Shown: positions 3 through 24,208 of the stretch, piece after piece | How positions within the stretch are numbered: the stretch's first letter is position 1 | Layout: every line of letters starts with the position of its first letter | From: Edaphobacter aggregans | GTDB lineage: Bacteria; Acidobacteriota; Terriglobia; Terriglobales; Acidobacteriaceae | Direction: 5' to 3' | NCBI RefSeq assembly: GCF_003945235.1 | Contig: NZ_RSDW01000001.1 | Location: 3,300,001 to 3,332,000 of the forward strand | Length of the DNA: 32,000 bases | Notes under the pieces: model-generated | Database searches by the model: none | Seen by the model: the letters and a program-made list of their open reading frames with translations, nothing else | What the model was told of the DNA's origin: nothing | Made by a program: the position numbers and the translations under genes

Positions 3-3000
3 ATGAATAATTTGGGAAGACGTGCGGTTGCACTGCTATCTTTTTGTGTCTTGCTGGGCCTTTCCAGTGGATTTCTTCGTGCACAGCAGGGGGATACGGC
101 CCTGTACGGAGGGATGAAATGGCGCTCGATCGGGCCGTTTCGCGCGGGTCGCGTCTCTGCCGTGGCAGGGATTGCGGGCAATGCGGCTATCTACTATATG
201 GGCAGTCCGGGTGGGGGCGTGTGGAAGACGGTGGACGGCGGGGTGGTGTGGACGCCGATCTTCGACCAGATGCATGTGGCGTCGATCGGGGCGATTGTGG
301 TCGCGCCGTCGAAGCCAGACGTGGTCTATGTGGGCACCGGCGATGTGAGCCTGGTCGGGGCAGCCGTGAACATGGGCAACGGGATCTACAAGTCTGTCGA
401 CGCGGGACGCACGTGGACTCATGTGGGGCTCGAGAATACGGAGCATATCGGCGCTATGTGGGTGGATCCCACGAATCCGGATGTGGTGGTGGTGGCGGCG
501 CTGGGGCGGACGTTCTCGCCGAATGCGGAGCGGGGGGTCTTCAAGACGACCGATGGCGGCAAGAGCTGGCGTAAGGTGCTCTACAAGGACGACGAGACGG
601 GCGCGATCGACGTGGTGTTTGCCGCGGATGACTCGAAGATAGGCTATGCCGCCATGTGGCACCATCTGGTGAAACCGGGGCAGACGCAAGACCTGATCAA
701 CGGCTCGAAGGGCGGAGCGATCTATAAGACGACCGATGGCGGCGAGACGTGGACGCCGATTGTTGCACCGGGTCTGCCGGCCGAGGGGTTGAGCCGCATC
801 GGCGTGGCGACGTCGCTGGGTGGCAAGCGTGTCTATGCGATTGTGGCGGCTATGGGCGGAAACGCCGGCTTTTATCGGTCCGACGACGGCGGTGCGAACT
901 GGATCAAGAGCACGACTGATCCGCGGGTGACCGGCAGCGGGTATTTCAGCAGGGTTTTCATTGATCCGAAGAATCCGGACGTTATTTATGTGGCGCAGAC
1001 TTCGCTTTACCGGTCGGAGGATGGCGGGCACACGTTCATCTCGTACAAGGGAGCGCCGGGCGGGGACGACAATCACGCGCTGTGGATCGATCCTACGGAT
1101 TCGACGCGCATGATCATGGCGAGCGATCAGGGCGCGACGATCAGCATGGACACCGGGAAGAGCTGGAGCTCCTGGTATAACCAGCCGACGGCCCAGATCT
1201 ATCACATGTCAACGGACAACCGGTTCCCCTACTGGGTCTACGGGACGCAGCAGGATAGCGGCAGCGTGGCTACGCTGAGCCGGGGGGATTATGGTGCGAT
1301 CACCTTCCTCGACTGGGATCCGGTGGCGGCCTATGAGTTCGGGTACATCGTGCCTGATCCTTCGAACCCGAACATGGTCTATGCGGGCGGGCCGGGACGT
1401 GGTTTGGTGCTGTTGAACCGCGCCAACCGACAGGTGCAGACGATCTCTCCGAACCTGAGCCGCGACGGCGACTATCGCATGGCGCAGAATCCGCCGTTGG
1501 CGTTTTCTCCGCAGGATGCGCATGTGTTTTACGAGGGCACGCAGTTCCTGATGGAGACGAGCGACGCCGGGACGAACTGGAAGAAGATCAGCCCTGACCT
1601 GACGGTCCGAGCCGGCAGCGAAGAGACGAACCGGAAGGAGAAAGAAGAGGCTGCATCGCACGCACAGCAGGACAGAAAGCTGAGAACGAAGGAGGCGAAC
1701 GAGACGCTGGCACAGCCGAATCGGAGCGCCATCAACACATTTGCTCCTTCGCCCGTGGCAAAGGGACAGATATGGGCAGGCACGACCAACGGCCTGGTGC
1801 AACTGACCAAGGACGACGGGGCGAGCTGGCAGCAGGTGTCTCCGCAGGGACTTACTCAGTTCACGATGATCAGCATCATCGAGGCTTCGCACTTCGACGC
1901 GGCTACAGCTTATGTTGCGGTTGACCGGCACGAGGAGGACGACTTCAAGCCGCATATCTATCGCACGCGCGATGCGGGCAAGAGTTGGGAGCAAACGGTC
2001 GCAGGTATCGCTGATGGAGATTTTGTTCGCGTGGTTCGCGAGGATCCGGTTCGCAAGGGTCTGCTGTACGCGGGAACGGAGAATGCGACGTATGTCTCCT
2101 TCGACGACGGTGAACACTGGAGTACGCTTCAACTGAACATGCCGACGACCTCAGTGAGGGATTTGCAGGTTCGAGGCAGCGATCTGGTGGCCGCGACGTA
2201 TGGACGTTCCTTCTGGATTCTGGATGATATAAGCCCTCTGCGGCAGATCGATGCGAAGACGGCGCAGCAGCAGACGGTGTTCTACCGGCCCGAGCGGGCT
2301 CTTCGGGTGCAGTTGGATCTGAATGGGGATACTCCGTTGCCACCAGAGATACCGGCTGGGCAGAATCCGCCGAACGGTGCGCTGCTGGATTTCTACCTGA
2401 AGACGGAGCCGACGGAGGATATCGCGCTCGCGATCTACGATAGCAAGGGCCAACTTGTTCGGGAGTTTTCGACGAAGGCAGAGACGCACACTGCAGAGCC
2501 GCCCCCCAATGTTCCGGACTACTGGCTGGGGCATCCGGAGCCGCTGACAAAGGTGGCTGGGATGAACCGATTCTTGTGGGATCTGCGCTATGCTCCGCCG
2601 TTGGCGCTACGGCATCAGTATGCAATCTCGGCGATGTATGGCAATACACCTGCGGAGCCACAAGGGGCGCTGGTAACGCCGGGTTTGTACGAAGTGCGGC
2701 TTACGGTGGGCAGCAAGCAGTATAAGCAGCCGCTTGAGGTCGTGATCGATCCGAGGATTGCGGTGTCGAAGGATGCGCTGGCGCGCCAGTTTGAGCTGGA
2801 ACGCAAGACGACCGACATGGTGACGCTGACCTACAACTACTATCATCAGGCGATCGCGTTGCGGGAAGCTATCACCGGGGCAGAGAAAAAGCTACAGAAC
2901 CAGGACGCCGAGTCGGTTGCTGCTTTGAAGGAGTTCGACCAGAAGGTGTTGCGACTGCAGGGCGCTGAGGGTCGCGGAGGCGGACCTCCTGCCGCCGGCC

Positions 3001-3281
3001 GGACGAAGCCCACGTTTGCACTGCTGAACGGCGAGTTCGGCTCGCTGGCGACCACGGTCGATAGTGCGGACAGCGATCCGACGCCGGTAATGGATGCGAC
3101 CTTTGGCGACTACTGCCGCGATCTGCTGAATGTAACGACGAGCTGGAATCAGTTGGTCAAGCAAGAGCTTCCGACGCTGAACGACACGCTGGAAAAACAG
3201 AAGATGTCGGCGCTGCCGGCGGGAACGATTGGAGCGCCAACGCAGTGTCCGTTACCTACCGATAATCGCGCTGCGAAATGA
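3..3281 (+). CDS. Exported BNR/Asp-box repeat protein, sortilin/VPS10- or GH74-like double beta-propeller (paralogue A)
   Basis: 1092-aa ORF starting at ATG 3. N-terminal signal peptide (MNNLGRRAVALLSFCVLLGLSSGFLRAQQ). About 10 Asp-box motifs of type S/TxDxGxTW (SVDAGRTW, TTDGGKSW, TTDGGETW, SDDGGANW, SEDGGHTF, SMDTGKSW, TSDAGTNW, TKDDGASW, TRDAGKSW, SFDDGEHW). Collinear by eye with the ORF at 11657-14869 over the whole length. Confidence 0.8.
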   Translation: MNNLGRRAVALLSFCVLLGLSSGFLRAQQGDTALYGGMKWRSIGPFRAGRVSAVAGIAGNAAIYYMGSPGGGVWKTVDGGVVWTPIFDQMHVASIGAIVVAPSKPDVVYVGTGDVSLVGAAVNMGNGIYKSVDAGRTWTHVGLENTEHIGAMWVDPTNPDVVVVAALGRTFSPNAERGVFKTTDGGKSWRKVLYKDDETGAIDVVFAADDSKIGYAAMWHHLVKPGQTQDLINGSKGGAIYKTTDGGETWTPIVAPGLPAEGLSRIGVATSLGGKRVYAIVAAMGGNAGFYRSDDGGANWIKSTTDPRVTGSGYFSRVFIDPKNPDVIYVAQTSLYRSEDGGHTFISYKGAPGGDDNHALWIDPTDSTRMIMASDQGATISMDTGKSWSSWYNQPTAQIYHMSTDNRFPYWVYGTQQDSGSVATLSRGDYGAITFLDWDPVAAYEFGYIVPDPSNPNMVYAGGPGRGLVLLNRANRQVQTISPNLSRDGDYRMAQNPPLAFSPQDAHVFYEGTQFLMETSDAGTNWKKISPDLTVRAGSEETNRKEKEEAASHAQQDRKLRTKEANETLAQPNRSAINTFAPSPVAKGQIWAGTTNGLVQLTKDDGASWQQVSPQGLTQFTMISIIEASHFDAATAYVAVDRHEEDDFKPHIYRTRDAGKSWEQTVAGIADGDFVRVVREDPVRKGLLYAGTENATYVSFDDGEHWSTLQLNMPTTSVRDLQVRGSDLVAATYGRSFWILDDISPLRQIDAKTAQQQTVFYRPERALRVQLDLNGDTPLPPEIPAGQNPPNGALLDFYLKTEPTEDIALAIYDSKGQLVREFSTKAETHTAEPPPNVPDYWLGHPEPLTKVAGMNRFLWDLRYAPPLALRHQYAISAMYGNTPAEPQGALVTPGLYEVRLTVGSKQYKQPLEVVIDPRIAVSKDALARQFELERKTTDMVTLTYNYYHQAIALREAITGAEKKLQNQDAESVAALKEFDQKVLRLQGAEGRGGGPPAAGRTKPTFALLNGEFGSLATTVDSADSDPTPVMDATFGDYCRDLLNVTTSWNQLVKQELPTLNDTLEKQKMSALPAGTIGAPTQCPLPTDNRAAK

Positions 3282-3493
3282 TTTTGTTTCATCAGTAAAT
3301 TATTCCATTTGTTAATTTGCTTCTTTGTGTTATTCACTGAATATCCAAATTTTTCGTTTTCGCGTTGAGGTTCTCCAAGAGACCCAACGTCAACACCAAC
3401 TCAGCACGTCCACGACTGAGCGCTGAAAGTGTCAGTGAACTCTTATTCCCAGGCACGGCAGTACTTACTTGAAGCATCTGGAGGCTCTTCATC

Positions 3494-6400
3494 ATGAAAT
3501 GCAGTAATCTCCTTAAGATCGCAGGAGCGTTTTTCCTGTGTGTCTCCATGTCACTTGCACAAACGAGTACGACCGGTGCTGTGAACGGTACGATTGCGGA
3601 CGCGTCCGGCGCCATTGTTCCTGGGGCTACCGTTATCTTGTTTAATCCTGCGACGGGAACGACGCAGACGGTAAAGAGCAGTGCTTCCGGTACGTATCGG
3701 TTCGAGTTGATCCCTCCGGGCGACTACGTATTGCGGGTGGATCAGGCGGGATTTGCCAAGCTTGAGTCAAAAATTACAGTGAGCAATGCACAGGTGCTTG
3801 GAGCTGACCTGAAGCTGCAGGTGGGCAGCGAAACGACGACAATCGACGTTGAATCCGTGGCCACGACGTTGCAGACGGAAAACGGAAACGTGGCAACCAA
3901 TGTAAGCCGGAAGCAGATCGAAGAGGTTCCGAACTCCGGCAATAACATGACGTATGTGACGCGCATTACGCCGGGTATGGGCACAGGCTTCGGTGTTTCG
4001 GGAAGCACGACGCTTTATACGGTGGACGGCATGATGAATAACGATCCGTATAACAACTCGAATAACTCCGGCGCTTCGAACCTGATGCTTGGCATCAATG
4101 ACGTGGAAGAGGCGACGGTCACCGGTAACGGGTACTCGGGGCAATTTGGCGGCCTTGTGGGCGCGCAGGTTAGCTTTGTGACCAAGAGCGGCGGCAACCG
4201 GATGCATGGTGATGCCTCGTGGTTCTGGACCGGTCGCTCTCTGGTTGCGAACAACTGGTTTAACAACCACAACGGCACTCCCCGGCCATTTGAGAATGCA
4301 AACGAGTGGTCAGCCGCCATCAGCGGTCCGGCGATCAAGGACAGGCTGTTCTTTTATGTAGATACAGAAGGTCTGCGCGCCGTTCTGCCGTCAGCATCGA
4401 CCGGCATTTTGCTTCCGTCGCAGAATCTGCAGAACTACACTCTCTCGACTCTTGCCGCGAAGGGCCTGTCAAATTCGGTTCCTTATTACAAGAACATGTT
4501 TTCTATCTATAACGCGGCTGCCGCAGCACATAATGCTGTGCCGGGAAATCCAACAGCTGTAAACAATGCTGCAAATCCGACGGCGACAAGCACTGGTTGC
4601 CCGAGTGCTCCGAGTCTTACGGCAGGGGAGATCGCAGGGCTGGGTACAGCAGCAGGCGCCTGCACGGTCTTCTATCAGGGATCTGCGACTAACTTCGCTA
4701 ACGAGTGGTTGCTCATCGCGCGAGCCGACGCTGTTCTGGGGCCGCGTGACAGAGGCTTTATTCGCTACGAACATGACACCGGGAGCCAGCCAACTACGAC
4801 CGACCAGATCAACCCGCTGTTCAGCGCGATCAGCATTCAGCCCCAGCACTCTGGGCAGGTCAACGAGACCCATAACTTCGGGGCGCGTGCGGTGAACAAT
4901 CTGATCGTCACCGGCCTGTGGTATGGAGCGCTCTTTGGACCGTCGAATCTGCCGGCCACACTGGCGCTCTATCCGGCGCAGATGTCGTTCAGCGACAGCT
5001 CGCTTACCGGCCTGGGTGGTACGAACGCCTCGTTCCCTACCGGACGTAATATCACAACGATGCAGTTGCAGGATGACGTGGCAATCGATGCAGGCAGCCA
5101 TACGATCAAGTTTGGCGGTCGCGCATACCTGATCAAGGAGAACGACCACTACTTCACGGCAGGAACGGTGCCGTTGCAGACAGTGTCCACGCTCGGCGCC
5201 TTTATCAATGGAGGAAGCGACGGGTCGAATACCACGACGTTCGCTCAGTCGTTCGTTACCAAGCCAAACCACCCGATCATGTATGACCAGCTTGGCTTCT
5301 ATGTGGAAGATGACTGGAAGGCGCGCCGGGACTTCAACATGACCTTTGCCCTGCGGATCGAGCACCAGGGGAACGTCAAGTGTCTGGATAACTGCCTGAC
5401 CCTGCCGTTACAGCCGTTTCCAACGTTGACTCACTCCGCGGCCACCCCTTATAACCAAGCACTCGCCTTCAACCAGAAGGAAGTCCTTCCTGGATTGCAG
5501 GGGGTTGAATGGGAGCCACGTGTTGGGTTCTCCTATAACCCGCCAATTCTGCACGATACGCTTGTAGTTCGTGGCGGAGCCGGTATCTTCTTTGATGGAT
5601 TGCCTGGCAATATCGTGGAATCCATCGTCAAGAACTCCCCGGTGAAGAATACCTTCAAGCCTTCCGGAGATAACATCGCGTCGACGGAGACCTCTAACCT
5701 TTTCAACGATGCAGCTGCATTGAACACAGCGTTCAGCGGCAACATCGTGAACGGTGGAACGGTTGCATCCATCAAGGCCAGCTTGCCGACGGCGCTGCAG
5801 CCATTCTTCACGCCGCCGGGGTTGTATGGTCCTCAGAACAACTTCAAGATCTACCAGATATACAAGTGGAATCTTGAGGTGCAGAAGTCGTTCGGTAAAG
5901 GAACGACCGTTTCTATGAACTACCTGGGCAACCACGGCATCAACAAGCCGTATACCAACGCGGGCCTGAATGCTTACTCGACCACAATCGCCGGTCTACC
6001 GACATCGGCACCGGATACGCGGTTCGGGCAGGTGAACTACATTGTGTCCGGAGGCATGTCGAACTACAACGGTTTGATCGCGACCTTCACGCAGCGGTTC
6101 CGTGGCGGTAGCGTCTTCACAGCCGGCTACACCTATGGCAAGTCGATGGACACGACGACGACAGGCCTTAGCTCCACGACGACAGGCACGACGGATATCG
6201 CGTCGTCTGTCGACCCGTACAATCCCACCCGGTATGCTCCGGCTTCCTCGGACATCCGCAACTACCTGACGCTGAATTACGTATATAAAGTCCCGTTCAA
6301 GAACGCGTTTTATGGCGGATGGCAAGTCGCCGGAGCGGCCTTTATCTACTCGGGCCTTCCCTTCACCGTCGTTGACTCGGCAGCAACAGCCAAGATCAAC

Positions 6401-6844
6401 GGTTCGGCGAGCTCGGGCGGTTTCTATGGCGGTACGTTGATTGCAAACTATAACTACAGCGGAGAGGCTGCGTGCAGCCGTGCATATCAAGCTAACCCCT
6501 GCTTGACAGCTTCGCAGTTTCCCATCGGAACGAATGGTCTGCACACTTCAAGCGTCTCGTCCAACGGGCCACGTAACGCATTCCGCGGTCCCGACTATAT
6601 CAGCACCGACCTCAGCATCATGAAGGAGATTCCGTTGCACTTTGAAGGTGGTGTGTTCAGCTTTGGGGCGCAGGCCTACAATGTTCTGAACCATCCTAAC
6701 TTCTCACGTCCGACCACGAGTTCGTTCACCTCGACGAGCTTTGGCACCATCACTTCGATGGTGAATCCAGCGGGCGTCTTCAGCGGAGTGAGTGGTGACG
6801 ATTCGCCACGCATTGTGCAGATCAAGACCAAGCTCGTCTTCTAG
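3494..6844 (+). CDS. TonB-dependent outer-membrane receptor with N-terminal carboxypeptidase-regulatory-like domain (TBDR1)
   Basis: 1116-aa ORF. GGAGG lies 9 nt upstream of ATG 3494. Signal peptide ends ...SMSLAQ|T. It is followed by a CarboxypepD_reg-like segment (GAVNGTIADASGAIVPGATVILFN), a plug-like region (YTVDGMMNNDPYN) and a long Gly/Asn/Tyr/Thr-rich barrel. The C-terminus is ...KTKLVF, with the terminal Phe typical of OM beta-barrels. Confidence 0.85.
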   Translation: MKCSNLLKIAGAFFLCVSMSLAQTSTTGAVNGTIADASGAIVPGATVILFNPATGTTQTVKSSASGTYRFELIPPGDYVLRVDQAGFAKLESKITVSNAQVLGADLKLQVGSETTTIDVESVATTLQTENGNVATNVSRKQIEEVPNSGNNMTYVTRITPGMGTGFGVSGSTTLYTVDGMMNNDPYNNSNNSGASNLMLGINDVEEATVTGNGYSGQFGGLVGAQVSFVTKSGGNRMHGDASWFWTGRSLVANNWFNNHNGTPRPFENANEWSAAISGPAIKDRLFFYVDTEGLRAVLPSASTGILLPSQNLQNYTLSTLAAKGLSNSVPYYKNMFSIYNAAAAAHNAVPGNPTAVNNAANPTATSTGCPSAPSLTAGEIAGLGTAAGACTVFYQGSATNFANEWLLIARADAVLGPRDRGFIRYEHDTGSQPTTTDQINPLFSAISIQPQHSGQVNETHNFGARAVNNLIVTGLWYGALFGPSNLPATLALYPAQMSFSDSSLTGLGGTNASFPTGRNITTMQLQDDVAIDAGSHTIKFGGRAYLIKENDHYFTAGTVPLQTVSTLGAFINGGSDGSNTTTFAQSFVTKPNHPIMYDQLGFYVEDDWKARRDFNMTFALRIEHQGNVKCLDNCLTLPLQPFPTLTHSAATPYNQALAFNQKEVLPGLQGVEWEPRVGFSYNPPILHDTLVVRGGAGIFFDGLPGNIVESIVKNSPVKNTFKPSGDNIASTETSNLFNDAAALNTAFSGNIVNGGTVASIKASLPTALQPFFTPPGLYGPQNNFKIYQIYKWNLEVQKSFGKGTTVSMNYLGNHGINKPYTNAGLNAYSTTIAGLPTSAPDTRFGQVNYIVSGGMSNYNGLIATFTQRFRGGSVFTAGYTYGKSMDTTTTGLSSTTTGTTDIASSVDPYNPTRYAPASSDIRNYLTLNYVYKVPFKNAFYGGWQVAGAAFIYSGLPFTVVDSAATAKINGSASSGGFYGGTLIANYNYSGEAACSRAYQANPCLTASQFPIGTNGLHTSSVSSNGPRNAFRGPDYISTDLSIMKEIPLHFEGGVFSFGAQAYNVLNHPNFSRPTTSSFTSTSFGTITSMVNPAGVFSGVSGDDSPRIVQIKTKLVF

Positions 6845-6871: not shown

Positions 6872-6906
6872 AAACGGCAGTCCATTATGGGCTGCCGTTT
6901 TATTTG
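6872..6906. terminator. Bidirectional intrinsic terminator between convergent genes
   Basis: Perfect 9-bp stem AAACGGCAG / CTGCCGTTT with an 11-nt loop, followed by TATTTG on the + strand and flanked by an A/T run on the other side. It sits between the stop of the + strand TBDR (6844) and the stop of the - strand gene (6927). Confidence 0.7.
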
Positions 6907-6926: not shown

Positions 6927-7505
6927 TTAGTTGGAGGTGCTTGCCGGTGTAGCGCGGAATCCAGTGCTACGCAACCGGTAGCGGACTGCAGCGGCTGCGA
7001 AGGTTATGAGCGAGGAGACTTCGACAAAGACTTTGCCTCCGTCGAGCAGGTCTGGATGCCCATCCTTAAGGAGCGGGTCAGTAAGAATGCTGTGCAGGAA
7101 GAAGAGCGCGGCTGCGGGAAAGACGAGGTAGTGGAGATTTCGCCAGAGCGGGCGGCCGATCCGGGTGCGAAGGAGGGAGCTGAGGAGGACCAGCAAGAGT
7201 AAATAGAGAGCAGCGGCTCCTGCGAGATTGAGTTTCGGCTGGAGGGGCGAATGGATGGGCCAGAGGATGTCGATTACGCGAAAGTGCGGCTCATGCAGGA
7301 AGAGCAAGACCACGGGGTGCGTGAGGGTGAGCGCAACGGCGGCGTAGGCGGTCCATTGGTGGAGCGCGAAGATGTTCATGCGGCGATGAGGCCATTGGCG
7401 CAGCGGGCTGTATCGCAACGCGATCATCATGCCCAACAGCATATTGAGTGCCGCAGCACCGACAGCGCCGAGACCGAGGTAGGCGCATAGATCAAGAATG
7501 GTCAT
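6927..7505 (-). CDS. Stand-alone ferric-reductase-type (NOX/FRE-like) di-haem transmembrane protein, no flavin/NAD(P)H domain
   Basis: I trimmed the ORF-track start (7643) to ATG 7505, which is preceded by GGAG and lies downstream of the upstream gene's stop at 7565. The protein is about 192 aa with about 5 hydrophobic helices. Two helices carry His pairs with the bis-haem spacing: LHQWTAYAAVALTLTH (H-x13-H) and LHYLVFPAAALFFLH (H-x12-H). Confidence 0.6.
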   Translation of the reverse strand: MTILDLCAYLGLGAVGAAALNMLLGMMIALRYSPLRQWPHRRMNIFALHQWTAYAAVALTLTHPVVLLFLHEPHFRVIDILWPIHSPLQPKLNLAGAAALYLLLLVLLSSLLRTRIGRPLWRNLHYLVFPAAALFFLHSILTDPLLKDGHPDLLDGGKVFVEVSSLITFAAAAVRYRLRSTGFRATPASTSN

Positions 7506-7564
7506 AAAACTCCATGGCGGGGTGGGGATTGCTGCTTCCGGTTCAGTCGACGGTAATCCTCGTC

Positions 7565-8542
7565 TTATCCAAGATGCAGGAGACGTTCGGAAACGTTCCG
7601 CAGCCATGGCGACAGAGATGCGATGACGAGAGCGGCGCCGCATACCATGGCTGAAAGAGTCAGGATCGTCGAGAGGCGGCGTTGGGGGCTGGAAGTGGGG
7701 AACCTCTGAATGAGACGGTCGATGCGTACCGCAAACTCGGACTCTCCGCAGACGAGCCCGGTACAGATCATCGCGGGGTCAGGCGTGGTAGCCCGACGCG
7801 TCAAGGCGACCAAGGTTTCGGCGAGCAGGAAGGCGCGCGTACTATCACCCCGCACGGCATCGTCATCAGCGGCCCACTCCGCGGCATTTTGCCAGAGACG
7901 CATCCACGTGCTGCCAGCCGGCAATCTGAGGCTGAGTCTCGGAATGACATGGAGAGAGAAGAGCTTCCAGTTGTCGCGGTGTAACGCGTGGGAACGCTCG
8001 TGGTCGAGCACTACATCGAGGGCCAGAGCGCTCAGACTGCCATCTTCCATTAGATTCTGTGAGATACAGACGAAGGGGTTGTAGAGGCCAACCAAGGCGA
8101 CTCGATGCGCAGGCTCTTGAAGGGTGTAGATGGGGGTCTGATTGTGGGCGTGGGTTAAGCTCTGCCCGGAGCGCCTGCAGGCCTGGCTGAAGTGTATGGT
8201 TCTGGCCGCGATGCGGAGGCTGCGGAGGGCGGCGAATCCAAACCAGGCACAGACGATGGCCGCAAGAAGAAGGCAGAGCCAGCCGACCGTCTCCGGCGCA
8301 AGGTTTGTCTCGGTGTGAAGATACTGCGGGACACAAAAGAAGCCAGTTAGCAGCACTGCGACGAGGAAAGGCGCGACTTGCAGCAGGTAAAGGAGGCGCT
8401 CATGCTGTCTGACGGGCAGGGATGCCAGCAGGCGCTGAAGGAGGGGGGCGCCTGCCCAAAGGATGAGTTCGAGCGTGGTCTGCAGGATGCCTATGCTAAC
8501 CACAATAAGGCAGGCCAGACGGAGGGTATACGAGAGAACCAT
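7565..8542 (-). CDS. M56-family (BlaR1/MecR1-type) membrane zinc metalloprotease lacking an extracytoplasmic sensor domain
   Basis: HExxH motif in VLDHERSHALHRDNW, with EWAADDD downstream (the usual M56 'E..ACD' region). There are three TM helices before the protease loop and one after it (LSTILTLSAMVCGAALVIASL), and only about 13 residues follow that last helix. I chose ATG 8542 as the start, with GGAGG 9-13 nt upstream, 1 nt after the upstream gene's stop. The ORF-track TTG at 8578 would overlap that gene. Confidence 0.75.
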   Translation of the reverse strand: MVLSYTLRLACLIVVSIGILQTTLELILWAGAPLLQRLLASLPVRQHERLLYLLQVAPFLVAVLLTGFFCVPQYLHTETNLAPETVGWLCLLLAAIVCAWFGFAALRSLRIAARTIHFSQACRRSGQSLTHAHNQTPIYTLQEPAHRVALVGLYNPFVCISQNLMEDGSLSALALDVVLDHERSHALHRDNWKLFSLHVIPRLSLRLPAGSTWMRLWQNAAEWAADDDAVRGDSTRAFLLAETLVALTRRATTPDPAMICTGLVCGESEFAVRIDRLIQRFPTSSPQRRLSTILTLSAMVCGAALVIASLSPWLRNVSERLLHLG

Positions 8543-8543
8543 G

Positions 8544-9035
8544 TCAGGAGCCTCCGTCAGGTTCAGGGTCGGACCCAAGGTAGTTGGCGCGTGCGGATCG
8601 AATCTTGGACTCTAACTGGTCGAGCATGCCGGTGTCGTAATGATGGACAGCGTCGACCAGGCATGATAGCAACATATCGGGCCGCTCCCCTGAATCGGAG
8701 AAGTAGCGACGGATCAGGTCCGAGGCGCGCCGTTCCTCGATCTCCCTGGCAGTGAGGTGCGCGGAATAGATGAACGCGCGGTCCTTCTTTTCGCGGTGCA
8801 GGAGGCCTTTTTTGAAGAGACGATCGAGGGTCGTCATCACGGTGGTGTAGGCCAACGCCGTGCTTAGACGCTCCGCTACCTGCTGAACATTGGCATTACC
8901 CTGAGATCGGAGTACCGACAGGACTTCCCGTTCCCTCCGGCCTAATCCCCATGCGGGCTGCTTTGAGCCGGAACCTGGGGTGGAGGGTTCCCCCTGTTGC
9001 GGCTGGGTTTCGGGATTTTTACTCGAGTCAGCCAT
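8544..9035 (-). CDS. BlaI/MecI/CopY-family winged-helix transcriptional repressor with a Pro/Gln/Ser-rich N-terminal extension
   Basis: 163 aa. The core REREVLSVLRSQGNANVQQVAERLSTALAYTTVMTTLDRLFKKGLLHREKKDRAFIYSA matches the BlaI-family wHTH pattern. It lies directly upstream of, and is translationally coupled to, an M56 protease gene. About 30 low-complexity residues precede the domain. Confidence 0.8.
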   Translation of the reverse strand: MADSSKNPETQPQQGEPSTPGSGSKQPAWGLGRREREVLSVLRSQGNANVQQVAERLSTALAYTTVMTTLDRLFKKGLLHREKKDRAFIYSAHLTAREIEERRASDLIRRYFSDSGERPDMLLSCLVDAVHHYDTGMLDQLESKIRSARANYLGSDPEPDGGS

Positions 9036-9175
9036 TTCGATTGATCCAGTGAAGACGATGCCAAGGATGCCTCGGAGACGTTTCCGGACGGCTAAAAGTT
9101 TCGTGTCCCACTGGATTAGCCCGACACAAATTTAGACGGTTGAAGTCCTCAGCGCAGGCCAAAAGATGGGCTATA

Positions 9176-9189
9176 TTGAATTTGTTCAA
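9176..9189. promoter_or_regulatory. Palindrome TTGAA-N4-TTCAA (TTGA-N6-TCAA core) in the divergent blaI-like / M28 peptidase promoter region
   Basis: Perfect 5+5 inverted repeat about 45 nt upstream of the M28 peptidase start codon. Its core equals the TTGA-N6-TCAA core of Crp/Fnr-type boxes. It could alternatively be the BlaI-family operator. Confidence 0.25.
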
Positions 9190-9233
9190 GCTTAATCCAA
9201 CTCTATCAAGAGTGCTTTCTGTGTGGAGGAATT

Positions 9234-11489
9234 TTGCGTCGATTTGTGTCTGTACTCCTGCTCAACACTATGGCTGCCGGGCTGGTAGCCCAATCAGCGC
9301 CTTCGTCATCGAGCGCTCTGCTTGGTTATACAGACGCGAACGCAAAAGTCGAGCGTGACTGGGAAAACCGTTTTCGAGCCATTCCTGAGGCGAAGCGGGC
9401 GCATGAGAATATGCGTCTGTTGGCGGCGCATCCGCACCATGTAGGCTCTGAGGCTCAACGAAAGAACGCGGAATGGATGGTGGCGCGCTACAAGGAATGG
9501 GGTTGGGACGCGCACATCGAACAGTTTGACGTGTTGTATCCGATGCCAAAGACGATGCTGCTCGAGATGGTAGGGCCCAAGCCGTTCAAAGCGAAGCTGG
9601 ATGAACCGCCGCTTGCGGAAGATCCGTATACGCACGAGAAGGCGACCCAACTCCCTGGGTACAACATCTACTCCGCGGATGGGGATGTGACCGGACCCCT
9701 GGTTTACGCGAACTATGGGATGCTCGATGACTACGCTGAATTGGAGCGGAATGGCATCTCGGTCAAGGGAGCCATCGTCATCACGCGTTACGGCGGCGGC
9801 TGGCGCGGATTGAAGCCGAAGCTGGCTTATGAACATGGAGCTATCGGATGCATCATCTACTCCGATCCGGCGGATGACGGCTATGTGCAGAATGATGTGT
9901 TGCCGTCTGGCCCGATGCGCCCGAGTGGCGGCGTACAGCGCGGCAGCGTCGCAGACACCCCGCTCTATCCTGGCGATCCGCTGACGCCAGGTTATGGGTC
10001 TGTCCCGGGGGCGAAGCGGCTGGCGATCAAGGATGCTCAGGTACTGATGAAGATTCCGGTGCTGCCAATCAGCTACGGTGATGCGCAGCCACTGCTGGCC
10101 GCATTGAGCGGCAGCGTTGTTCCTCCGGCCTGGCGTGGCGGTTTGCCGATGACGTACCACTTCGGCCCCGGACCGGCCAAGGTGCATCTGAAGCTCGCCT
10201 TTGATTGGGGAACGAAGCCGGTGCTAGATGTTGTCGCTACCATGAAGGGTTCGGTCGAGCCGGATGTTTGGATCGTGCGTGGCAATCACTACGATGGCTG
10301 GGTCAATGGCGCAGACGACCCGATCTCGGGACAGTCTGGAATGCTGGAAGAGGCTCGCGCTCTGGGAGAACTTGCGAAGCAGGGCTGGCGTCCTAAACGA
10401 ACGCTGATTTACGCAGCCTGGGATGGTGAGGAGCCGGGTTTGCTGGGCTCGACCGAGTGGGCCGAGACTCATGCGGAGGAACTGTCTAAACATGCGGCGC
10501 TCTATGTCAACAGTGACGAGAGCAATCGCGGCTTTTTCAATGCGGGTGGGTCGCATGCGCTCGAGCGTCTTGTGAACGACGTGGCGCACGATGTGACGGA
10601 CCCGGAGACCAAGGCTTCCATCTGGAAGAGGCAGCAGGCGGCGATGCTCAGCCGGGGGGGGCGGCCAGGCGCACGCAGCGTGGATTCGGGCAGCGAGACC
10701 ATTCCGATTGGAGCGATTGGGAGTGGTTCAGATTTCGCTACGTTTATCGACCACCTTGGCATTGCTTCGCTGAACCTCGGTTTCGGGGGTGAGGATCGTG
10801 GCGGCACCTATCATTCGGCTTACGATACGCCGTGGTACATCGAGCACTTTGGGGATAAGGAGTCCCTTTACGGAGCTGCGCTGGCTCAGACGGCGGGCAC
10901 TCTGGTGATGCGAGTGGCCGACGCCGATGTGCTGCCCTATGATTTTTCGAATCTGGCGGAGACGATCGGGGGCTACTCGACCGAATTGAAGTCGCTGGTG
11001 AAGCAGCTACAGCGGGAATCTGCGGTGCGGCAGCGGAACATCGCGATGGGCGTATATACGCTCGCAGCTGACCCGCAGCATCCGACGACGCTTCCGGGGC
11101 CGCTTGCCAGCCCGCCCGACATGGACTTTTCGCAGCTTGATGGTGCCATTGCCGCTTTGAAGACGGCGGCAGACAAGTTCAACAAGGCGCGTGCGGCTGG
11201 CATTGCGGCCTCACCGTCGAAGCTGAGTGCGGTGAATGCAGAGTTGGCGACGGCTGAGCGCAAGTTTCTGAATGCGGATGGTCTGCCGCGCAGGCCGTGG
11301 ACCCAGAATATTCTCTATGCCCCGGGTTGGTATACGGGGTACGGCGTCAAGACGCTGCCTGGAGTTCGGGAGGCGATCGAGGACGGACGATATCCAGAGG
11401 CGGCGGCGCAGTTGACGATTGCCACACAAGCTATCGCCAATGAGGCAGCCTACATCGACAAGATTGCCGACGAACTGGCTGTTCCATAG
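9234..11489 (+). CDS. M28-family zinc peptidase of the glutamate carboxypeptidase II / NAALADase / transferrin-receptor-like type (PA + M28 + TfR-dimerisation architecture)
   Basis: 751 aa. TTG start at 9234 with GGAGG 6 nt upstream. Signal peptide MRRFVSVLLLNTMAAGLVAQ. Several blocks closely resemble my recollection of mammalian GCPII: RGNHYDGWVNGADDPISGQSGMLEEARALG, YAAWDGEEPGLLGSTEWAE, YVNSDES, GSGSDFATFIDHLGIAS and YHSAYDT. Confidence 0.85.
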   Translation: MRRFVSVLLLNTMAAGLVAQSAPSSSSALLGYTDANAKVERDWENRFRAIPEAKRAHENMRLLAAHPHHVGSEAQRKNAEWMVARYKEWGWDAHIEQFDVLYPMPKTMLLEMVGPKPFKAKLDEPPLAEDPYTHEKATQLPGYNIYSADGDVTGPLVYANYGMLDDYAELERNGISVKGAIVITRYGGGWRGLKPKLAYEHGAIGCIIYSDPADDGYVQNDVLPSGPMRPSGGVQRGSVADTPLYPGDPLTPGYGSVPGAKRLAIKDAQVLMKIPVLPISYGDAQPLLAALSGSVVPPAWRGGLPMTYHFGPGPAKVHLKLAFDWGTKPVLDVVATMKGSVEPDVWIVRGNHYDGWVNGADDPISGQSGMLEEARALGELAKQGWRPKRTLIYAAWDGEEPGLLGSTEWAETHAEELSKHAALYVNSDESNRGFFNAGGSHALERLVNDVAHDVTDPETKASIWKRQQAAMLSRGGRPGARSVDSGSETIPIGAIGSGSDFATFIDHLGIASLNLGFGGEDRGGTYHSAYDTPWYIEHFGDKESLYGAALAQTAGTLVMRVADADVLPYDFSNLAETIGGYSTELKSLVKQLQRESAVRQRNIAMGVYTLAADPQHPTTLPGPLASPPDMDFSQLDGAIAALKTAADKFNKARAAGIAASPSKLSAVNAELATAERKFLNADGLPRRPWTQNILYAPGWYTGYGVKTLPGVREAIEDGRYPEAAAQLTIATQAIANEAAYIDKIADELAVP

Positions 11490-11656: not shown

Positions 11657-14600
11657 ATGACGATGCGTGGCCGGTTCCTTTCCGCAGTAGCGATGGTTGG
11701 TATTGGGATGTTGGGTGTGGGCGCTTGCTTGGCGCAGACGGGGGGCGTTGACCCGAAGCTCTTTTCCGATATGCGCTGGAGAGAGATTGGACCGATGCGC
11801 GGCGGGCGCGTACGTGCTCTGGCCGGTGTCCCGAGCCAGCCGGCGACCTTTTATTTTGGCGCGGTGAACGGCGGCGTGTGGAAGACAACCGATGCCGGGC
11901 AGACGTGGCAGAGTCTATGGGATTCTCAGCCCACCGGCTCCATCGGTTCTATCGCAGTAGCGGAATCCGATCCCAATGTGGTGTACGTGGCTAGTGGCGA
12001 GGGGTTGGCTCGCCCAGATCTTTCCACCGGCGATGGCATCTACAAATCTACTGATGCCGGAAAGACGTGGACTCATCTCGGGCTGCGGGATGGTCAGTCG
12101 ATCGGGCAGTTGGCTATCGACCCGAAAGATCCGAATCGGGTCTTTGTTGCGGTGACCGGGCATCCTTACGGTCCGAATGAAGAGCGTGGGATCTATCGCA
12201 CGCTGGATGGCGGGAAGACGTTTAAGCAAGTGCTGTTCGTCAACAATCGGACGGGTGGGTCCGATGTGCAGATCGACCCGCAACATCCGAACATCGTCTT
12301 CGCAGGAATGTGGCAGCGGCAGGAAGGTCCATGGGAGAATGGATCGTGGGGTGGCAGTGAAGGTGGATTCTACCGTTCGGCCGATGGTGGCGATACGTGG
12401 ACAAAACTCACAGGCCACGGTCTGCCAGATGACATTCTGCAGGTGAACGTGGCGATTGCGCCCAGCGACTCCAAGCGCGTATATGCGGCAGTCGCGACGG
12501 TAAGAGGTGGAGTCGGCATCTATCGCTCGGACGACGAGGGCGTGAACTGGGTCCATGCTCCGGAGAATGATCCGCGTGCGGAGGCGAGGATCGGTGGTGG
12601 CGATGTGCCGGTACCGCGTGTCGACCCGAAGAATCCCGATACGATTTACGTTGCAAGTGTCGTTACATGGAGATCGACTGACGCGGGCAAGACCTGGACT
12701 GGTCTGCGCGGCGCACCGGGCGGCGACGACTATCAGAATGTTTTCATCAATCCGAATAACACGGACATCATTGCGCTGGCGAGCGATCAGGGAGTCATCA
12801 TCTCGCAGAACGCGGGCAAGACGTGGAGCCAGTGGTATAACCAGCCCACCGCGCAGATGTACCACGTGACGACGGACAATGCATTTCCTTACCGCGTCTG
12901 CGGCGGGCAGCAGGACAGCGGCAGTGCTTGCGTTTCGAGCCGCAGTAACGATGGCCGCATTACGTTCAACGACTGGCATCCGGTCGGTATTGAGGAGTAT
13001 GGGTACGCTGCGCCCGATCCGCTTGATCCAGACATCGTGTACGGCGGCAAGGTGACGCGCTACGACCGGCGCACGGGTCAGATCCAGAACGTCGAGCCGA
13101 AGCCGCTGCGCAGTTACCGGGTTCTGCGGACACAGCCGTTGATGTTCTCACCGCTCGATCCTCACAGCCTCTACTTTGCTACGAACACGTTGTGGCTCAC
13201 CAAGGACCAGGGCAAGAACTGGAAGGAGATCAGCCCAGACCTGAGCCGCGAGACCTATGAGTTGCCGTCAACCCTAGCAACTTACAAGGATTCCCCGACT
13301 GCCAAGACAACGCGGCGTGGTGTGATCTATGCGCTTGGATTGTCCCCGCTTGATGTCAATCGGCTGTGGGCGGGAACGGACGACGGCCTGATCTGGACGA
13401 CTGCGGACGGAGGAGCGAACTGGAACAACGTGACTCCACCGGAGCTGAAGCCGTTCTGGAAGGTCTTCAATATGGACGCTGGCCACTACGATGCTTTGAC
13501 GGCATTTGCGGCGATCAACACGCTCCGGTTGGATGACATGCGCCCCCACCTCTTCCGTACTCACGACGGAGGTAAGACGTGGAAGGAGATCAACAACGGA
13601 ATTCCCGATGGTGCGGCGACGAGCACGATTCGCGAAGATCCGAAGCGCAAAGGACTCCTCTATGCAGGCACGGAGACGCAGGTTTATGTCTCCTTTGACG
13701 ATGGAGATCACTGGCAGTCGCTACGCTTGAACATGCCTGCAAGCTCAGTGCGTGACCTGCAGGTCAAGGACGACGACCTGATCGCGGGCACACACGGGCG
13801 CGGGTTCCTGATTTTGGATAACGTGACGCCGTTGCGTCAGGCGGCAGCCAAGCTGGCAGCAGAGCCGATGCATCTCTACACACCACAGACAGCACTTCGG
13901 ATTCGCGGAAATATGAACCCGCCAACACCATGGCCGCCAGACATGGCAACGGGAGAAAATCCGCCGAACGGTGCGATGTTCGACTACGTCATCGGTCCGA
14001 AGTTTACGGGAGTTCTGACGCTGGAGATTGTGGACGGTAAAGGTGAAGTGGTTAGCCGATTCCGCAGCGACGATCCAGTGCCGCCGCTCGATCCGCGTTA
14101 TCCCGATCCGACGCTGTGGGCACGTGCGCCGCGAGTGCTCTCGGCAGCGGAAGGTCACCATCGTTTCCTTTGGGACCTGCGCTATCCGGCTGTTCCTGGT
14201 ATGTCGACCGGGCCTGATGCAGACCAAGCGGTTCCGTATGACACGCCTGCTGTTCCGTCTTCGCCGTGGGTGATGCCCGGCAAGTACACGGTGCGACTGA
14301 TTGCTGGTGGCACCACCTTGAGTCAGCCCTTCAACGTGGTGATGGACCCGCGCGTGAAGACGCCAATGCCGGAGATCGAGGACCAGTTCAAGGTATCGAA
14401 GGCGATCTATGCCGACACGATGCGCGCGACGGTAGCGATCCACGAGATCACCGTTTTGCGCGAGCAGTTGAAGGCTAAGTCAAATCAATCTCCCGTGGCC
14501 GCCGTGGGCGACTCGTTGGAGTCGAAGCTGAACAAGATCGCTGGTGGCGGGGAAGGTGGACGGGGCGGTGGTGGTCGTGCCGGTCCAGCAGGCCCTCCAA

Positions 14601-14869
14601 CGTTGAACGCGGTGCGCGTCCAGCTTGCGCGTATTGAGCATTCGATTCAGAGTGCCGATGTGGCTCCGACAACGGCGCAGGTAGAGGCTTATGCGACTCT
14701 CGCGAAGCCTCTGAATGATCTGCTTGATCAATGGAGCACATTGAAGGCCAGTGATCTGAAGGCGCTGAACAGCACGCTGCGGCTTCAGCATTTGCCGTTG
14801 TTAGAGCTCGATACGACTGTGATCGATCATAACGTTGAAGACCAGATCGAACTCGGCGACGAAGAGTAA
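11657..14869 (+). CDS. Exported BNR/Asp-box repeat protein, sortilin/VPS10- or GH74-like double beta-propeller (paralogue B)
   Basis: 1070 aa. AGGAG lies upstream of ATG 11657. Signal peptide ends ...GACLAQT. Repeated Asp-boxes (TTDAGQTW, STDAGKTW, TLDGGKTF, SADGGDTW, SDDEGVNW, STDAGKTW, SQNAGKTW, TKDQGKNW, TADGGANW, THDGGKTW, SFDDGDHW). About half the residues look identical to the ORF at 3-3281 by eye. Confidence 0.8.
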   Translation: MTMRGRFLSAVAMVGIGMLGVGACLAQTGGVDPKLFSDMRWREIGPMRGGRVRALAGVPSQPATFYFGAVNGGVWKTTDAGQTWQSLWDSQPTGSIGSIAVAESDPNVVYVASGEGLARPDLSTGDGIYKSTDAGKTWTHLGLRDGQSIGQLAIDPKDPNRVFVAVTGHPYGPNEERGIYRTLDGGKTFKQVLFVNNRTGGSDVQIDPQHPNIVFAGMWQRQEGPWENGSWGGSEGGFYRSADGGDTWTKLTGHGLPDDILQVNVAIAPSDSKRVYAAVATVRGGVGIYRSDDEGVNWVHAPENDPRAEARIGGGDVPVPRVDPKNPDTIYVASVVTWRSTDAGKTWTGLRGAPGGDDYQNVFINPNNTDIIALASDQGVIISQNAGKTWSQWYNQPTAQMYHVTTDNAFPYRVCGGQQDSGSACVSSRSNDGRITFNDWHPVGIEEYGYAAPDPLDPDIVYGGKVTRYDRRTGQIQNVEPKPLRSYRVLRTQPLMFSPLDPHSLYFATNTLWLTKDQGKNWKEISPDLSRETYELPSTLATYKDSPTAKTTRRGVIYALGLSPLDVNRLWAGTDDGLIWTTADGGANWNNVTPPELKPFWKVFNMDAGHYDALTAFAAINTLRLDDMRPHLFRTHDGGKTWKEINNGIPDGAATSTIREDPKRKGLLYAGTETQVYVSFDDGDHWQSLRLNMPASSVRDLQVKDDDLIAGTHGRGFLILDNVTPLRQAAAKLAAEPMHLYTPQTALRIRGNMNPPTPWPPDMATGENPPNGAMFDYVIGPKFTGVLTLEIVDGKGEVVSRFRSDDPVPPLDPRYPDPTLWARAPRVLSAAEGHHRFLWDLRYPAVPGMSTGPDADQAVPYDTPAVPSSPWVMPGKYTVRLIAGGTTLSQPFNVVMDPRVKTPMPEIEDQFKVSKAIYADTMRATVAIHEITVLREQLKAKSNQSPVAAVGDSLESKLNKIAGGGEGGRGGGGRAGPAGPPTLNAVRVQLARIEHSIQSADVAPTTAQVEAYATLAKPLNDLLDQWSTLKASDLKALNSTLRLQHLPLLELDTTVIDHNVEDQIELGDEE

Positions 14870-14921: not shown

Positions 14922-14929
14922 GTCTCCGG

Positions 14930-14975
14930 AGAGTTCTTGGATCCATGTGTCTGTGGGTTCGAGAACTCTTTTTTG
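14930..14975 (+). terminator. Intrinsic terminator 2 (in tandem with terminator 1)
   Basis: AGAGTTCT ... AGAACTCT forms an 8-bp outer stem with further imperfect inner pairing. A run of six T's (14969-14974) follows immediately. Confidence 0.6.
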
Positions 14976-15115
14976 GTTTGGAGTTGTGTTCATCCGATTG
15001 ATTGTCCGGACGCGTAGCTTCCTACTACTAGCTCTGGTAGTAGAGCGTATCTTCCCGTAGTTCTAGATATAGAAAATTCTCACATTCTTAACTGTCGGCT
15101 CATCTGGGGAGATCC

Positions 15116-18055: not shown

Positions 18056-18074
18056 CAACTCATCAGGAGGAACG

Positions 18075-22408: not shown

Positions 22409-22453
22409 CGCTTGGTCATTCTAGTTGATGGCGGCTGCGGAGCCTTCAGATCA

Positions 22454-22523
22454 GGTACTCCTCCCCGTACCTTTGGTCCTAAAGTATTCCATCCAGGTAC
22501 TTTAGGTCTGGACTTGGTCTTGA
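22454..22523 (+). repeat. About 70-nt direct repeat, copy 1 (contains inverted repeat CCTAAAGTA-N11-TACTTTAGG)
   Basis: Aligns by eye with 22598-22668 at roughly four-fifths identity, at a 144-nt period. It has an internal perfect 9-bp inverted repeat. Confidence 0.7.
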
Positions 22524-22554
22524 GTTCCAACGGCGGATTCGCGTGAAGGCTTAA

Positions 22555-22580
22555 CACCGATTTGCACCGATGACACCGAT
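22555..22580 (+). repeat. Three tandem CACCGAT heptamers at 9-10 bp spacing
   Basis: CACCGAT occurs at 22555, 22565 and 22574, within the context ACACCGATTTG CACCGATG ACACCGATTTG. The array lies between the two 70-nt repeats. Confidence 0.65.
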
Positions 22581-22597
22581 TTGTTGTGGGGAGTTGA

Positions 22598-22668
22598 GGT
22601 ATCCCCCTCTCCCGTACTTTTGTTCTAAAGTCTTCTATTTAGATACTTTAAGTCTGGACCTGGTCTGA
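22598..22668 (+). repeat. About 70-nt direct repeat, copy 2 (degenerate internal inverted repeat)
   Basis: See copy 1. Shared blocks are CCCGTAC, TCTAAAGT, TACTTTA and GTCTGGAC.TGGTCT. The internal stem is reduced to TAAAGT/ACTTTA. Confidence 0.7.
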
Positions 22669-22683
22669 TTTTGGTTAAGTGCG

Positions 22684-22714: not shown

Positions 22715-22852
22715 GTCTCTGTTTCTATTATAGCGGGGTGAGAGTAATTAGTTGCCAGACGGATGTTGTTGTGGGGTAATGGGTTAGGTGGGGTTGGGGC
22801 TTGACAGGTTTTTAGTTGGTGTTTTGCGGCGGTGGCGGTAAAACAGAAGGTG

Positions 22853-24206: not shown

Positions 24207-24208
24207 GC

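Follow-up and report, generated by a model that had tools for sequence, protein, structure and literature searches.

A sensor-less BlaI/M56 gene pair and a stand-alone ferric-reductase-domain gene in Edaphobacter aggregans, with a predicted link to a TonB-dependent uptake operon

We investigated a 32,000-nucleotide stretch of DNA (the window) assigned to Edaphobacter aggregans, whose M56 protein was 100% identical to E. aggregans EDE15_2816. Three closely spaced genes lie on the minus strand from 9035 to 6927, in the order BlaI-like repressor (8544–9035), short BlaR1-like M56 membrane metalloprotease (7565–8542) and stand-alone ferric-reductase-domain (FRD) protein (6927–7505). We describe these genes and a likely connection between the repressor/protease pair and a receptor operon elsewhere in the window (15116–20963, plus strand). 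The BlaI-like gene ends in TGA at 8546–8544, and the M56 ATG follows one base further on at 8542, with GGAGG 8 nt upstream of it, inside the 3′ end of the BlaI gene. The M56 gene stops with TAA (7567–7565) and is separated from the FRD gene by a 59-nt spacer (7506–7564), in which the sequence reads GGAG at 7513–7510, 4 nt before the FRD ATG at 7505. The terminator scan returned no terminator-like site in this spacer. M56–FRD gaps were 21–72 nt in the nine related loci measured, and the order BlaI-M56-FRD with such short gaps recurred in 11 other distinct loci. FRD and receptor A converge, and a hairpin read from the sequence between them (AAACGGCAG-11 nt-CTGCCGTTT, 6872–6900) likely marks the end of the transcript; it was not listed by the terminator scan because its 11-nt loop exceeds the limit of the scan. 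A single transcription unit running from BlaI through M56 to FRD would best explain the layout of 9035–6927.

The first gene encodes a 163-aa winged-helix repressor of the BlaI/MecI/CopY family. Its Penicillinase_R domain (PF03965, residues 31–128) scored 77.9 bits in Pfam against a cut-off of 22.6, and its best sequence matches in the PDB were Mycobacterium tuberculosis Rv1846c BlaI (2g9w), Bacillus licheniformis BlaI (1p6r) and MecI (1okr). Ahead of the winged helix lies a low-complexity N-terminal extension rich in Pro, Gln, Ser and Gly (residues 1–30, window 8946–9035), which is variable or absent among homologues of 127–184 aa. A BlaI gene was paired 5′ of M56 in every related locus with contig coverage upstream of M56.

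The second gene encodes a protein of 325 aa that matched the Pfam family Peptidase_M56 (PF05569) at 23.7 bits, under the cut-off of 31, and profile searches of NCBIfam and the PDB gave no match. Consequently, the protein was modelled and its fold compared. The AlphaFold2 model, built from an alignment of 30 homologues, reached a pLDDT of 82 and a pTM of 0.79 and contained four long membrane helices and a cytoplasmic gluzincin domain. Its top PDB matches in Foldseek were Staphylococcus aureus BlaR1 cryo-EM structures 8exp, 8exq and 8exs (probability 1.0, TMq 0.50; E = 8e-5 for 8exp), and the next family was BepA/Ste24. The protein carries HERSH (H181, E182, H185), D190 and E222-WAA-D226. These motifs, H181-E-x-x-H185, D190 and E222-x-x-x-D226, correspond to the BlaR1 catalytic set of H201EXXH, D210 and E242XXXD (PMC9834060). 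H181, E182, H185, D190, D226, E78, E84, E319 and H323 were invariant in the 30-sequence alignment; E222 is conserved, being E in every row of the printed alignment blocks, and is absent from the list of invariant columns. Judging from knowledge of the family and from the intact catalytic residues, the protein is probably a catalytically competent BlaR1-type membrane protease.

The last helix of this protease (residues 286–309) is followed by a conserved tail of only 16 residues (310–325) with no penicillin-binding sensor domain, and it is therefore a BlaR-like M56 protease and not a beta-lactam sensor. All 157 homologues were 315–359 aa long, so that the short form is the norm of the family, and the subfamily shares the C-terminal motif PWLhxLxE(H/R)LLHLG; on these two grounds, a truncated pseudogene was ruled out. 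Nor is a sensor-less M56 protein unusual, as no identifiable C-terminal domain was the commonest architecture in a 2026 survey of ~15,000 M56 proteins, in which TonB_C came second and transpeptidase sensors made up ~6% (PMC13492132). BlaR1 has an N-out/C-out topology, and its EL1 loop, between helices 2 and 3, relays the state of the sensor to the protease (PMC9834060). The equivalent loop here has ~12 residues (76–87), compared with ~40 in BlaR1, and contains the invariant E78 and E84. An amphipathic C-terminal helix (311–322) ends in the conserved E319-(H/R)-L-L-H323-L-G. As the sole conserved periplasmic features of the protein, E78, E84, E319 and H323 offer the best candidates for where a signal is received. 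Sensing probably takes place at this minimal periplasmic face, through the E78/E84 loop and the E319/H323 helix, which is the most speculative step of our account; a metal ion, haem or a contact made by another envelope protein could serve as the signal.

The third gene encodes a protein of 192 aa with five predicted helices, which matched Ferric_reduct (PF01794) in Pfam at 43.3 bits against a cut-off of 28. It consists of this domain alone, with neither the FAD nor the NAD(P)H domain found at the C-terminus of NOX/FRE proteins. Its histidines H49/H63 (H-x13-H) and H125/H138 (H-x12-H) fall within predicted helices 45–67 and 118–141, and all four were invariant in 51 orthologues. The AlphaFold2 model (pLDDT 66) gave SpNOX (8qta/8qt6, TMq 0.56), STEAP2 (0.63), STEAP1 and NOX5 as top Foldseek matches, suggesting a NOX/STEAP-like fold, with a model confidence that is moderate at best. 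Residues 142–158 (T142 to K158) form a nearly invariant acidic/His loop, TDPLLKDGHPDLLDGGK. By analogy with NOX proteins, the basic loops 31–44 and 113–122 are predicted to be cytoplasmic and loop 142–158 periplasmic, beside the outer haem, where a metal-binding reduction site would be expected. A longer open reading frame (ORF; 6927–7643, minus strand, 238 aa) starts at ATG 7643 and overlaps the 3′ end of M56. The start at 7505 was favoured because homologues are 185–254 aa long (most 187–206) and conservation begins at L4/D5. Identity among orthologues was 64–89% for FRD and 32–78% for M56.

The FRD protein resembles MsrQ (YedZ), the haem subunit of the periplasmic methionine sulfoxide reductase MsrPQ, which is likewise a stand-alone PF01794 membrane haem protein of ~200 aa passing electrons to the periplasm. 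However, the FRD protein matched no NCBIfam family at E ≤ 1, MsrQ included, it keeps all four NOX-type histidines, and no MsrP-type molybdoenzyme gene was present in the window or in any locus with an inspected gene table or ORFs. An identity with MsrQ was rejected on the basis of the missing family match and the missing MsrP neighbour.

Much of what the first-pass annotation had read from the letters of the sequence was upheld by these results. The packing and coordinates of the three genes were as it described. Its domain assignments agree with Pfam for the repressor and the FRD protein and with the modelled BlaR1 fold for the sub-threshold M56. The missing sensor domain and the two His pairs, conserved and placed in predicted helices, were likewise borne out, and its reservation that the M56 gene might be a truncated pseudogene of a longer homologue was not realised.

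A search for palindromes in BlaI upstream regions brought up a 19-bp element, CTACTAsC-N3-GsTAGTAG, and this receptor-linked element was the only one that general palindrome discovery found there. The window copy is a near-palindrome at 15025–15043, CTACTAGC-TCT-GGTAGTAG, with arms complementary at 7/8 positions. It is the sole match in the window (0.11 expected by chance) and lies 72 nt 5′ of the ATG of a gene for a TonB-dependent-receptor-like outer-membrane protein (receptor B, 15116–18055, plus strand; CarboxypepD_reg and OMP_b-brl_4 in Pfam). A weight matrix was made from the palindrome sites and scanned over all non-redundant loci (~0.8 Mb) with a threshold of 18 bits. The window site scored 29.9 bits, and the next independent site in the window 3.7 bits. 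Of the 30 loci with BlaI-M56, 18 held a site of at least 18 bits; of the 40 without the pair, none did (Fisher p = 4e-9). In the 12 BlaI-M56 loci that had no site, the covered sequence included no start of a receptor-B-type gene. The distance from site to receptor start was 72–101 nt in 16/16 loci where the start was covered; the contigs of L053 and L055 end before it.

The position of the palindrome follows the receptor gene through different gene arrangements. It occurs in the divergent region between receptor and BlaI (L057, L059, L063, L065, L072, L077), between M56 and the receptor (L054, L067, L068, L076), and 3′ of FRD ahead of the receptor, as BlaI-M56-FRD, palindrome, receptor (L053, L070). 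Tandem receptor pairs stand behind it in L068, L070 and L076. The copies lie at L035:2143, L049:1939, L053:1746, L054:1997, L055:1314 and 1391, L057:3492, L059:4009, L063:4448, L065:4429, L067:3514, L068:9043, L070:9632, L072:7350, L074:3035, L075:5811 and 9377, L076:11057 and L077:7264. Orthologues of receptor B (60–74% identical) have the palindrome ahead of them only when the locus has BlaI-M56. Seven receptor-B relatives in loci without BlaI-M56 (six 62–74% identical, that of L017 40%) have short plain leaders with no palindrome. The arms are conserved in sequence, with no covariation in the position table, across M56 proteins diverged down to 32% identity. Their outer parts, TAC...GTA, resemble the TACA/TGTA cores of BlaI/MecI/CopY boxes (PMC7253601). 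By inference from this distribution, the palindrome at 15025–15043 is likely a BlaI operator and the receptor operon 15116–20963 the unit it would regulate.

The second gene of that unit is also receptor-like (17919–20963, plus strand; Pfam) and lies directly downstream of receptor B, with which it probably shares an operon. Its true start is probably after 18055, since CarboxypepD_reg begins at residue 95 of the listed ORF. The first-pass annotation had offered the flanking TonB-dependent receptors and the divergent M28 peptidase as members of a regulon. The receptor part stands for the gene at 15116–18055, 6 kb away, but not for the flanking receptor A (3494–6844, plus strand), a receptor-like outer-membrane protein gene convergent with FRD. 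The weight-matrix scan of the window gave no palindrome upstream of receptor A, which is not a predicted target, and no operator-like site was found for the M28 peptidase gene (9234–11489, plus strand). The divergent BlaI/M28 intergenic region (9036–9233) is 91% conserved with L006/L004; it holds no copy of the palindrome, and its best weight-matrix score of −10 bits equals background. Autoregulation of the window operon through the palindrome was rejected on account of this absence; only L075 and, weakly, L051 have a BlaI-proximal site that does not double as the site of a receptor gene. We found no evidence that BlaI controls receptor A, the BlaI/M28 region or FRD in this genome. Inverted 7-mers within 9036–9233 (ACAAATT/AATTTGT) are kept in L006; they were set aside as a candidate signal because conservation between only two species is uninformative.

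The association of FRD with BlaI-M56 was followed in both directions. Window proteins were placed by tblastn in 44 FRD loci, all from Acidobacteriaceae, with one genome per species (L006–L049). BlaI-M56 adjoined FRD in five of the 44 (L006, L007 in inverted form, L033, L035, L049). By comparison, FRD adjoined a Sortilin/BNR gene (~1070 aa) or a CarboxypepD_reg/beta-barrel receptor-like gene in 32, counting L035 and L049, where BlaI-M56 lies between. These latter arrangements vary, with FRD divergent from Sortilin, 5′ of a Sortilin→receptor pair or 3′ of a receptor, and they involve different paralogues; one metagenome-assembled genome holds two FRD–Sortilin pairs (L011, L047). From the side of the protease, a metagenome scan with the M56 alignment and look-ups of individual homologues provided 24 further loci. 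Among the 13 informative scan loci, the gene downstream of M56 was FRD in four (L051, L053, L058, L062), Sortilin/BNR in four, a receptor in two, an importer consisting of periplasmic binding protein, FecCD and ATPase in one (L057), and unrelated genes in two. The look-ups gave BlaI-M56-FRD-receptor-receptor-Sortilin (L070), BlaI-M56-receptor-receptor (L068, L076), BlaI-M56 followed by binding protein, FecCD and ATPase and divergent from a receptor gene (L072), BlaI-M56-DUF5117 protease-Sortilin/FG-GAP (L077) and window-like arrangements (L074, L075). Overall, among 26 informative loci, 12 had FRD directly 3′ of M56, more than any other single gene. A neighbour-joining tree of M56 placed its FRD-linked members in several clades, mixed with FRD-less ones. 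Our reading of these gene orders is that the association is real, with a negligible probability of chance adjacency, yet facultative both ways, and for that reason unlike an obligate sensor–transducer pair.

The neighbours of the operon bear on what the uptake system may carry. Two paralogous Sortilin/BNR–receptor pairs flank it, at 3–3281/3494–6844 and 11657–14869/15116–18055; their Sortilin proteins are ~40% and their receptors ~20–27% identical, and only the second pair has the palindrome. The Sortilin/BNR double beta-propeller of the second pair (Sort_B; 11657–14869, plus strand; 1070 aa, Pfam) has a signal peptide and a possible lipobox, and no other kind of gene adjoins FRD as often in other genomes. 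Between Sort_B and the stretch that holds the palindrome and the receptor-B promoter region lies a terminator-like hairpin with a T-run (14928–14971, plus strand). The M28 peptidase, which has PA and TFR_dimer domains in Pfam and is of the glutamate-carboxypeptidase-II/transferrin-receptor-like type, lies between Sort_B and BlaI only in the window, L006 and L074 lineages; it is missing in L035, L049 and L075, where Sort_B abuts BlaI directly.

Two loci carry a haem-type ATP-binding cassette (ABC) importer (Peripla_BP_2, FecCD, ATPase) after BlaI-M56, at L057:5131–7862 and L072:9044–11784, in the position taken by FRD elsewhere. In L057 the palindrome lies between BlaI and a divergent receptor 62% identical to receptor B; L072 has the same layout. 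The L072 ATPase reached 266 bits against a cut-off of 261 for the NCBIfam equivalog haem ABC transporter ATP-binding protein. The L072 binding protein was nearest to IsdE and BtuF, under threshold, and its importer is of type II, the class that handles haem, corrinoids and siderophores. Beyond the receptor of L072 there is also a multicopper oxidase gene (2494–4173). Because a haem-type importer stands at the FRD position, and because of the FRD family itself, a metal chelate is the most economical guess at the cargo. The exchange points to two alternative routes at the inner membrane: FRD would serve reduction and release in the periplasm, and the ABC importer would take in the chelate whole. 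Other bacteria provide documented precedents for each, with FrcB, FoxB and FsrB on the one hand and the Fhu/Hmu systems on the other (PMC8891985, PMC10760861).

Taken together, we favour a reading in which the BlaI/M56 switch controls an uptake operon for a metal chelate and FRD is a periplasm-facing reductase accessory like FrcB; we hold it to be somewhat better than an even bet. Dimeric BlaI would bind the palindrome at 15025–15043 and repress the receptor genes 15116–20963, and the M56 protease would lift repression through cleavage of BlaI, as family knowledge and the intact catalytic residues suggest. Comparative genomics points to a TonB-dependent uptake operon as the target, with no beta-lactamase involved. 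Haem, an iron complex or another metal chelate would be the most likely cargo. The protease, lacking a sensor domain, would sense at its short E78/E84 loop and E319/H323 amphipathic helix. FRD would be an optional accessory of the uptake module, an FrcB-like inner-membrane di-haem electron conduit that delivers electrons to a periplasmic site at the invariant Asp/His loop, where imported Fe(III) or its chelate may be reduced and the metal freed in the periplasm.

Several observations weigh against this account. The putative link between BlaI and the palindrome comes from comparative genomics. As the window BlaI promoter lacks the palindrome, FRD here may escape regulation by BlaI. The haem-type ABC importers belong essentially to one M56 clade and therefore count as a single evolutionary event. 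Other neighbours, namely the M28 peptidase, an amino-acid permease in L022 and L046, the DUF5117 protease of L077, proteases near L076 and L077 and Sortilin/BNR proteins that weakly resemble GH74 and BNR glycosidases, would fit the uptake of peptides or glycans and leave the role of FRD unexplained. Where FRD and operator share a unit (L053, L070), FRD always lies on the regulator side, as expected of a sensory partner. The low confidence of the FRD model and a likeness to FrcB in general features add to these points.

The last but one of these points leads to the explanation proposed in the first-pass annotation, that FRD supplies the sensor missing from M56, its haem occupancy, redox state or Fe(II) product gating the protease through contact in the membrane or periplasm so that M56 inactivates BlaI. 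The lack of a sensor domain in M56 speaks for it, as do the frequency of FRD directly 3′ of M56 across several clades, its placement 5′ of the operator and never behind it, and the invariant acidic/His residues that both proteins have on the predicted periplasmic side. Against it, the annotation's own test, whether FRD is syntenic with M56/BlaI genes in related genomes, turned out largely negative, with 5/44 FRD loci and 4/13 unbiased M56 scan loci showing the pairing. The invariant periplasmic residues of M56 are, moreover, the same with or without an adjacent FRD: P72, Y74, E78 and E84 were conserved at 100% in both groups and E319/H323 at 100% with versus 85% without, and the comparison yielded no group-specific residue on the predicted periplasmic face. 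FRD is also far better conserved than M56, and its steady partner is the Sortilin/BNR gene. A dedicated FRD sensor is thus not supported by synteny and is quite improbable in our view; the idea is weakened and not killed, because FRD may be encoded elsewhere in the genome and act in trans. A combined scheme appears less probable again. Here, a ferric or haem chelate brought in by the receptor would be reduced by FRD in the periplasm, the M56 Glu/His site would read the released metal or the redox state, and cleavage of BlaI by M56 would derepress the receptor operon through the 19-bp operator. If this Fec-like proteolytic signalling held, FRD would be part of signal generation wherever a lineage has kept it within the regulator operon.

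Alternatively, FRD could be unrelated to BlaI-M56, a general MsrQ-like conduit of electrons towards the periplasm within a shared syntenic block into which the regulator pair was inserted, between Sort_B and FRD. Three loci without BlaI-M56 (L001, L012, L034) have receptor B and Sort_B divergent from FRD, and in L035, L049 and L075 BlaI-M56 occupies exactly that gap; some homologues are annotated by JGI as 'methionine sulfoxide reductase heme-binding subunit'. The missing MsrP gene and the missing NCBIfam match tell the other way. That FRD stays beside Sortilin or receptor genes through several rearrangements, and whichever paralogue is involved, speaks for function rather than inertia, and co-transcription is hard to avoid given the same orientation and very short gaps of the inserted genes. 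We regard this explanation as unlikely. It is similarly unlikely that the palindrome binds a different regulator or folds as an RNA hairpin in the receptor leader, with BlaI-M56 controlling something else, for instance only itself. Such a view would account for the window BlaI promoter being free of the palindrome and for an arm spacing unlike that of TACANNTGTA boxes (PMC7253601). In L035:2128–2176 and L049:1924–1972, furthermore, the flanks extend the complementarity by 9–10 bp with different sequences (GCAGAAGCTC/GAGCTTCTGC versus AAATGCTCT/AGAGCATTT), as in an RNA stem, and an RNA hairpin or terminator could overlap the site between Sort_B and the receptor gene there. It is countered by the confinement of the palindrome to loci with BlaI-M56, even among close receptor relatives, and by arms that are kept in sequence and do not covary. 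Rfam gave no family match in the window or in four related loci, so a riboswitch or other RNA known to Rfam was rejected as a candidate.

The favoured account, a BlaI/M56 switch on metal-chelate uptake, can be set beside several known systems. As in BlaI/BlaR1 and MecI/MecR1 of Staphylococcus and Bacillus, which mediate proteolytic derepression of beta-lactam resistance, the repressor gene lies directly 5′ of the coupled M56 gene. The winged-helix Penicillinase_R domain, the HExxH and ExxxD motifs, an Asp five residues past the second His and the BlaR1-like fold are shared as well (PMC9834060). The pair here differs in its 16-residue tail in place of a penicillin-binding sensor domain, its shorter EL1-equivalent loop, a Pfam M56 score under the gathering threshold and a predicted target that is a TonB-dependent receptor operon and not a beta-lactamase or penicillin-binding protein. 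It is closer to the non-canonical BlaIR systems without a transpeptidase domain (CenIR of Clostridioides difficile, Rv1846c/Rv1845c of M. tuberculosis, M56-TonB_C fusions), which likewise combine a short or unidentifiable M56 C-terminus with a BlaI-like repressor. Fusions of M56 with TonB have been noted in Bacteroides (PMC10350073), and the rank of TonB_C as second architecture ties M56 signalling more generally to TonB-dependent transport (PMC13492132; PMC10350073). In contrast to these systems, the genes described here form an Acidobacteriaceae-specific subfamily with its own C-terminal motif and a candidate operator, and their neighbours are receptor, Sortilin/BNR, FRD or haem-type ABC genes. 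As far as our literature search showed, none of the studied non-canonical BlaIR systems has an FRD gene in its operon.

The FRD protein here is encoded beside TonB-dependent receptor genes, and frcB of Bradyrhizobium reportedly adjoins a siderophore-receptor gene. FrcB is described as a stand-alone di-haem membrane ferric reductase (Small & O'Brian 2011, as cited in PMC8891985, PMC10760861). In general terms, the FRD protein resembles FrcB of B. japonicum: both are small, sit in the inner membrane, are predicted to bind two b-haems and lack a flavin or NAD(P)H domain. The FRD protein differs in having the Sortilin/BNR beta-propeller as its steady neighbour. Reducing the chelate in the periplasm, as FrcB, FoxB, FsrB and FpvG do, is well established as a substitute for taking it up whole through an ABC importer (PMC8891985, PMC10760861). 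Among these reductases, FoxB and FsrB come from another family, PepSY_TM/COG3182. The likeness to FecA/FecR/FecI is by inference only, in that membrane-embedded proteolysis would couple an envelope signal to receptor-gene transcription. Here, the components are a repressor and an M56 protease, whereas there they are an extracytoplasmic-function (ECF) sigma factor and an anti-sigma factor, and no signalling domain was found on the receptor.

Sensor-less BlaIR-type pairs are already known, as are the stand-alone FRD proteins MsrQ and FrcB. Most BlaI/BlaR-type pairs lack a penicillin-binding domain, and the signal or regulon is known for almost none of those that do (PMC13492132). Our literature searches on BlaI/BlaR1 with TonB-dependent receptors, or on Sortilin/BNR with TonB, in Acidobacteria found nothing relevant. 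What appears to be new, in that we found no paper describing it, is an Acidobacteriaceae M56/BlaI subfamily putatively associated with TonB-dependent uptake loci, a precise operator candidate, and a recurrent, optional FRD gene in the predicted regulator operon together with a conserved pairing of FRD and Sortilin/BNR genes. The subfamily thereby offers a concrete case with a predicted operator, a predicted TonB-dependent target and a plausible class of cargo (metal chelates or haem), in which a very small set of conserved periplasmic M56 residues must carry the sensing. It may also give a first handle on the regulation of the very numerous receptor/Sortilin-BNR uptake loci of Acidobacteriaceae, which are abundant in soil, and it draws attention to the FRD–Sortilin/BNR gene pair, which is conserved and uncharacterised.

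A few observations stand apart from these arguments. The linkage of FRD to Sortilin/BNR is far more faithful than that of FRD to BlaI-M56, and the two genes form a conserved pair. In L022 (2700–4271) and L046 (5313–6926), the amino-acid permease gene lies between the divergent Sortilin/BNR and FRD genes, in the slot that BlaI-M56 holds elsewhere, and L040 probably has the same arrangement. Further along the window, the minus strand from 21215 to 26059 encodes an acyl-CoA dehydrogenase and a two-subunit 2-oxoacid:ferredoxin oxidoreductase (POR/TPP_enzyme_C), which are apparently unrelated to the genes described above.

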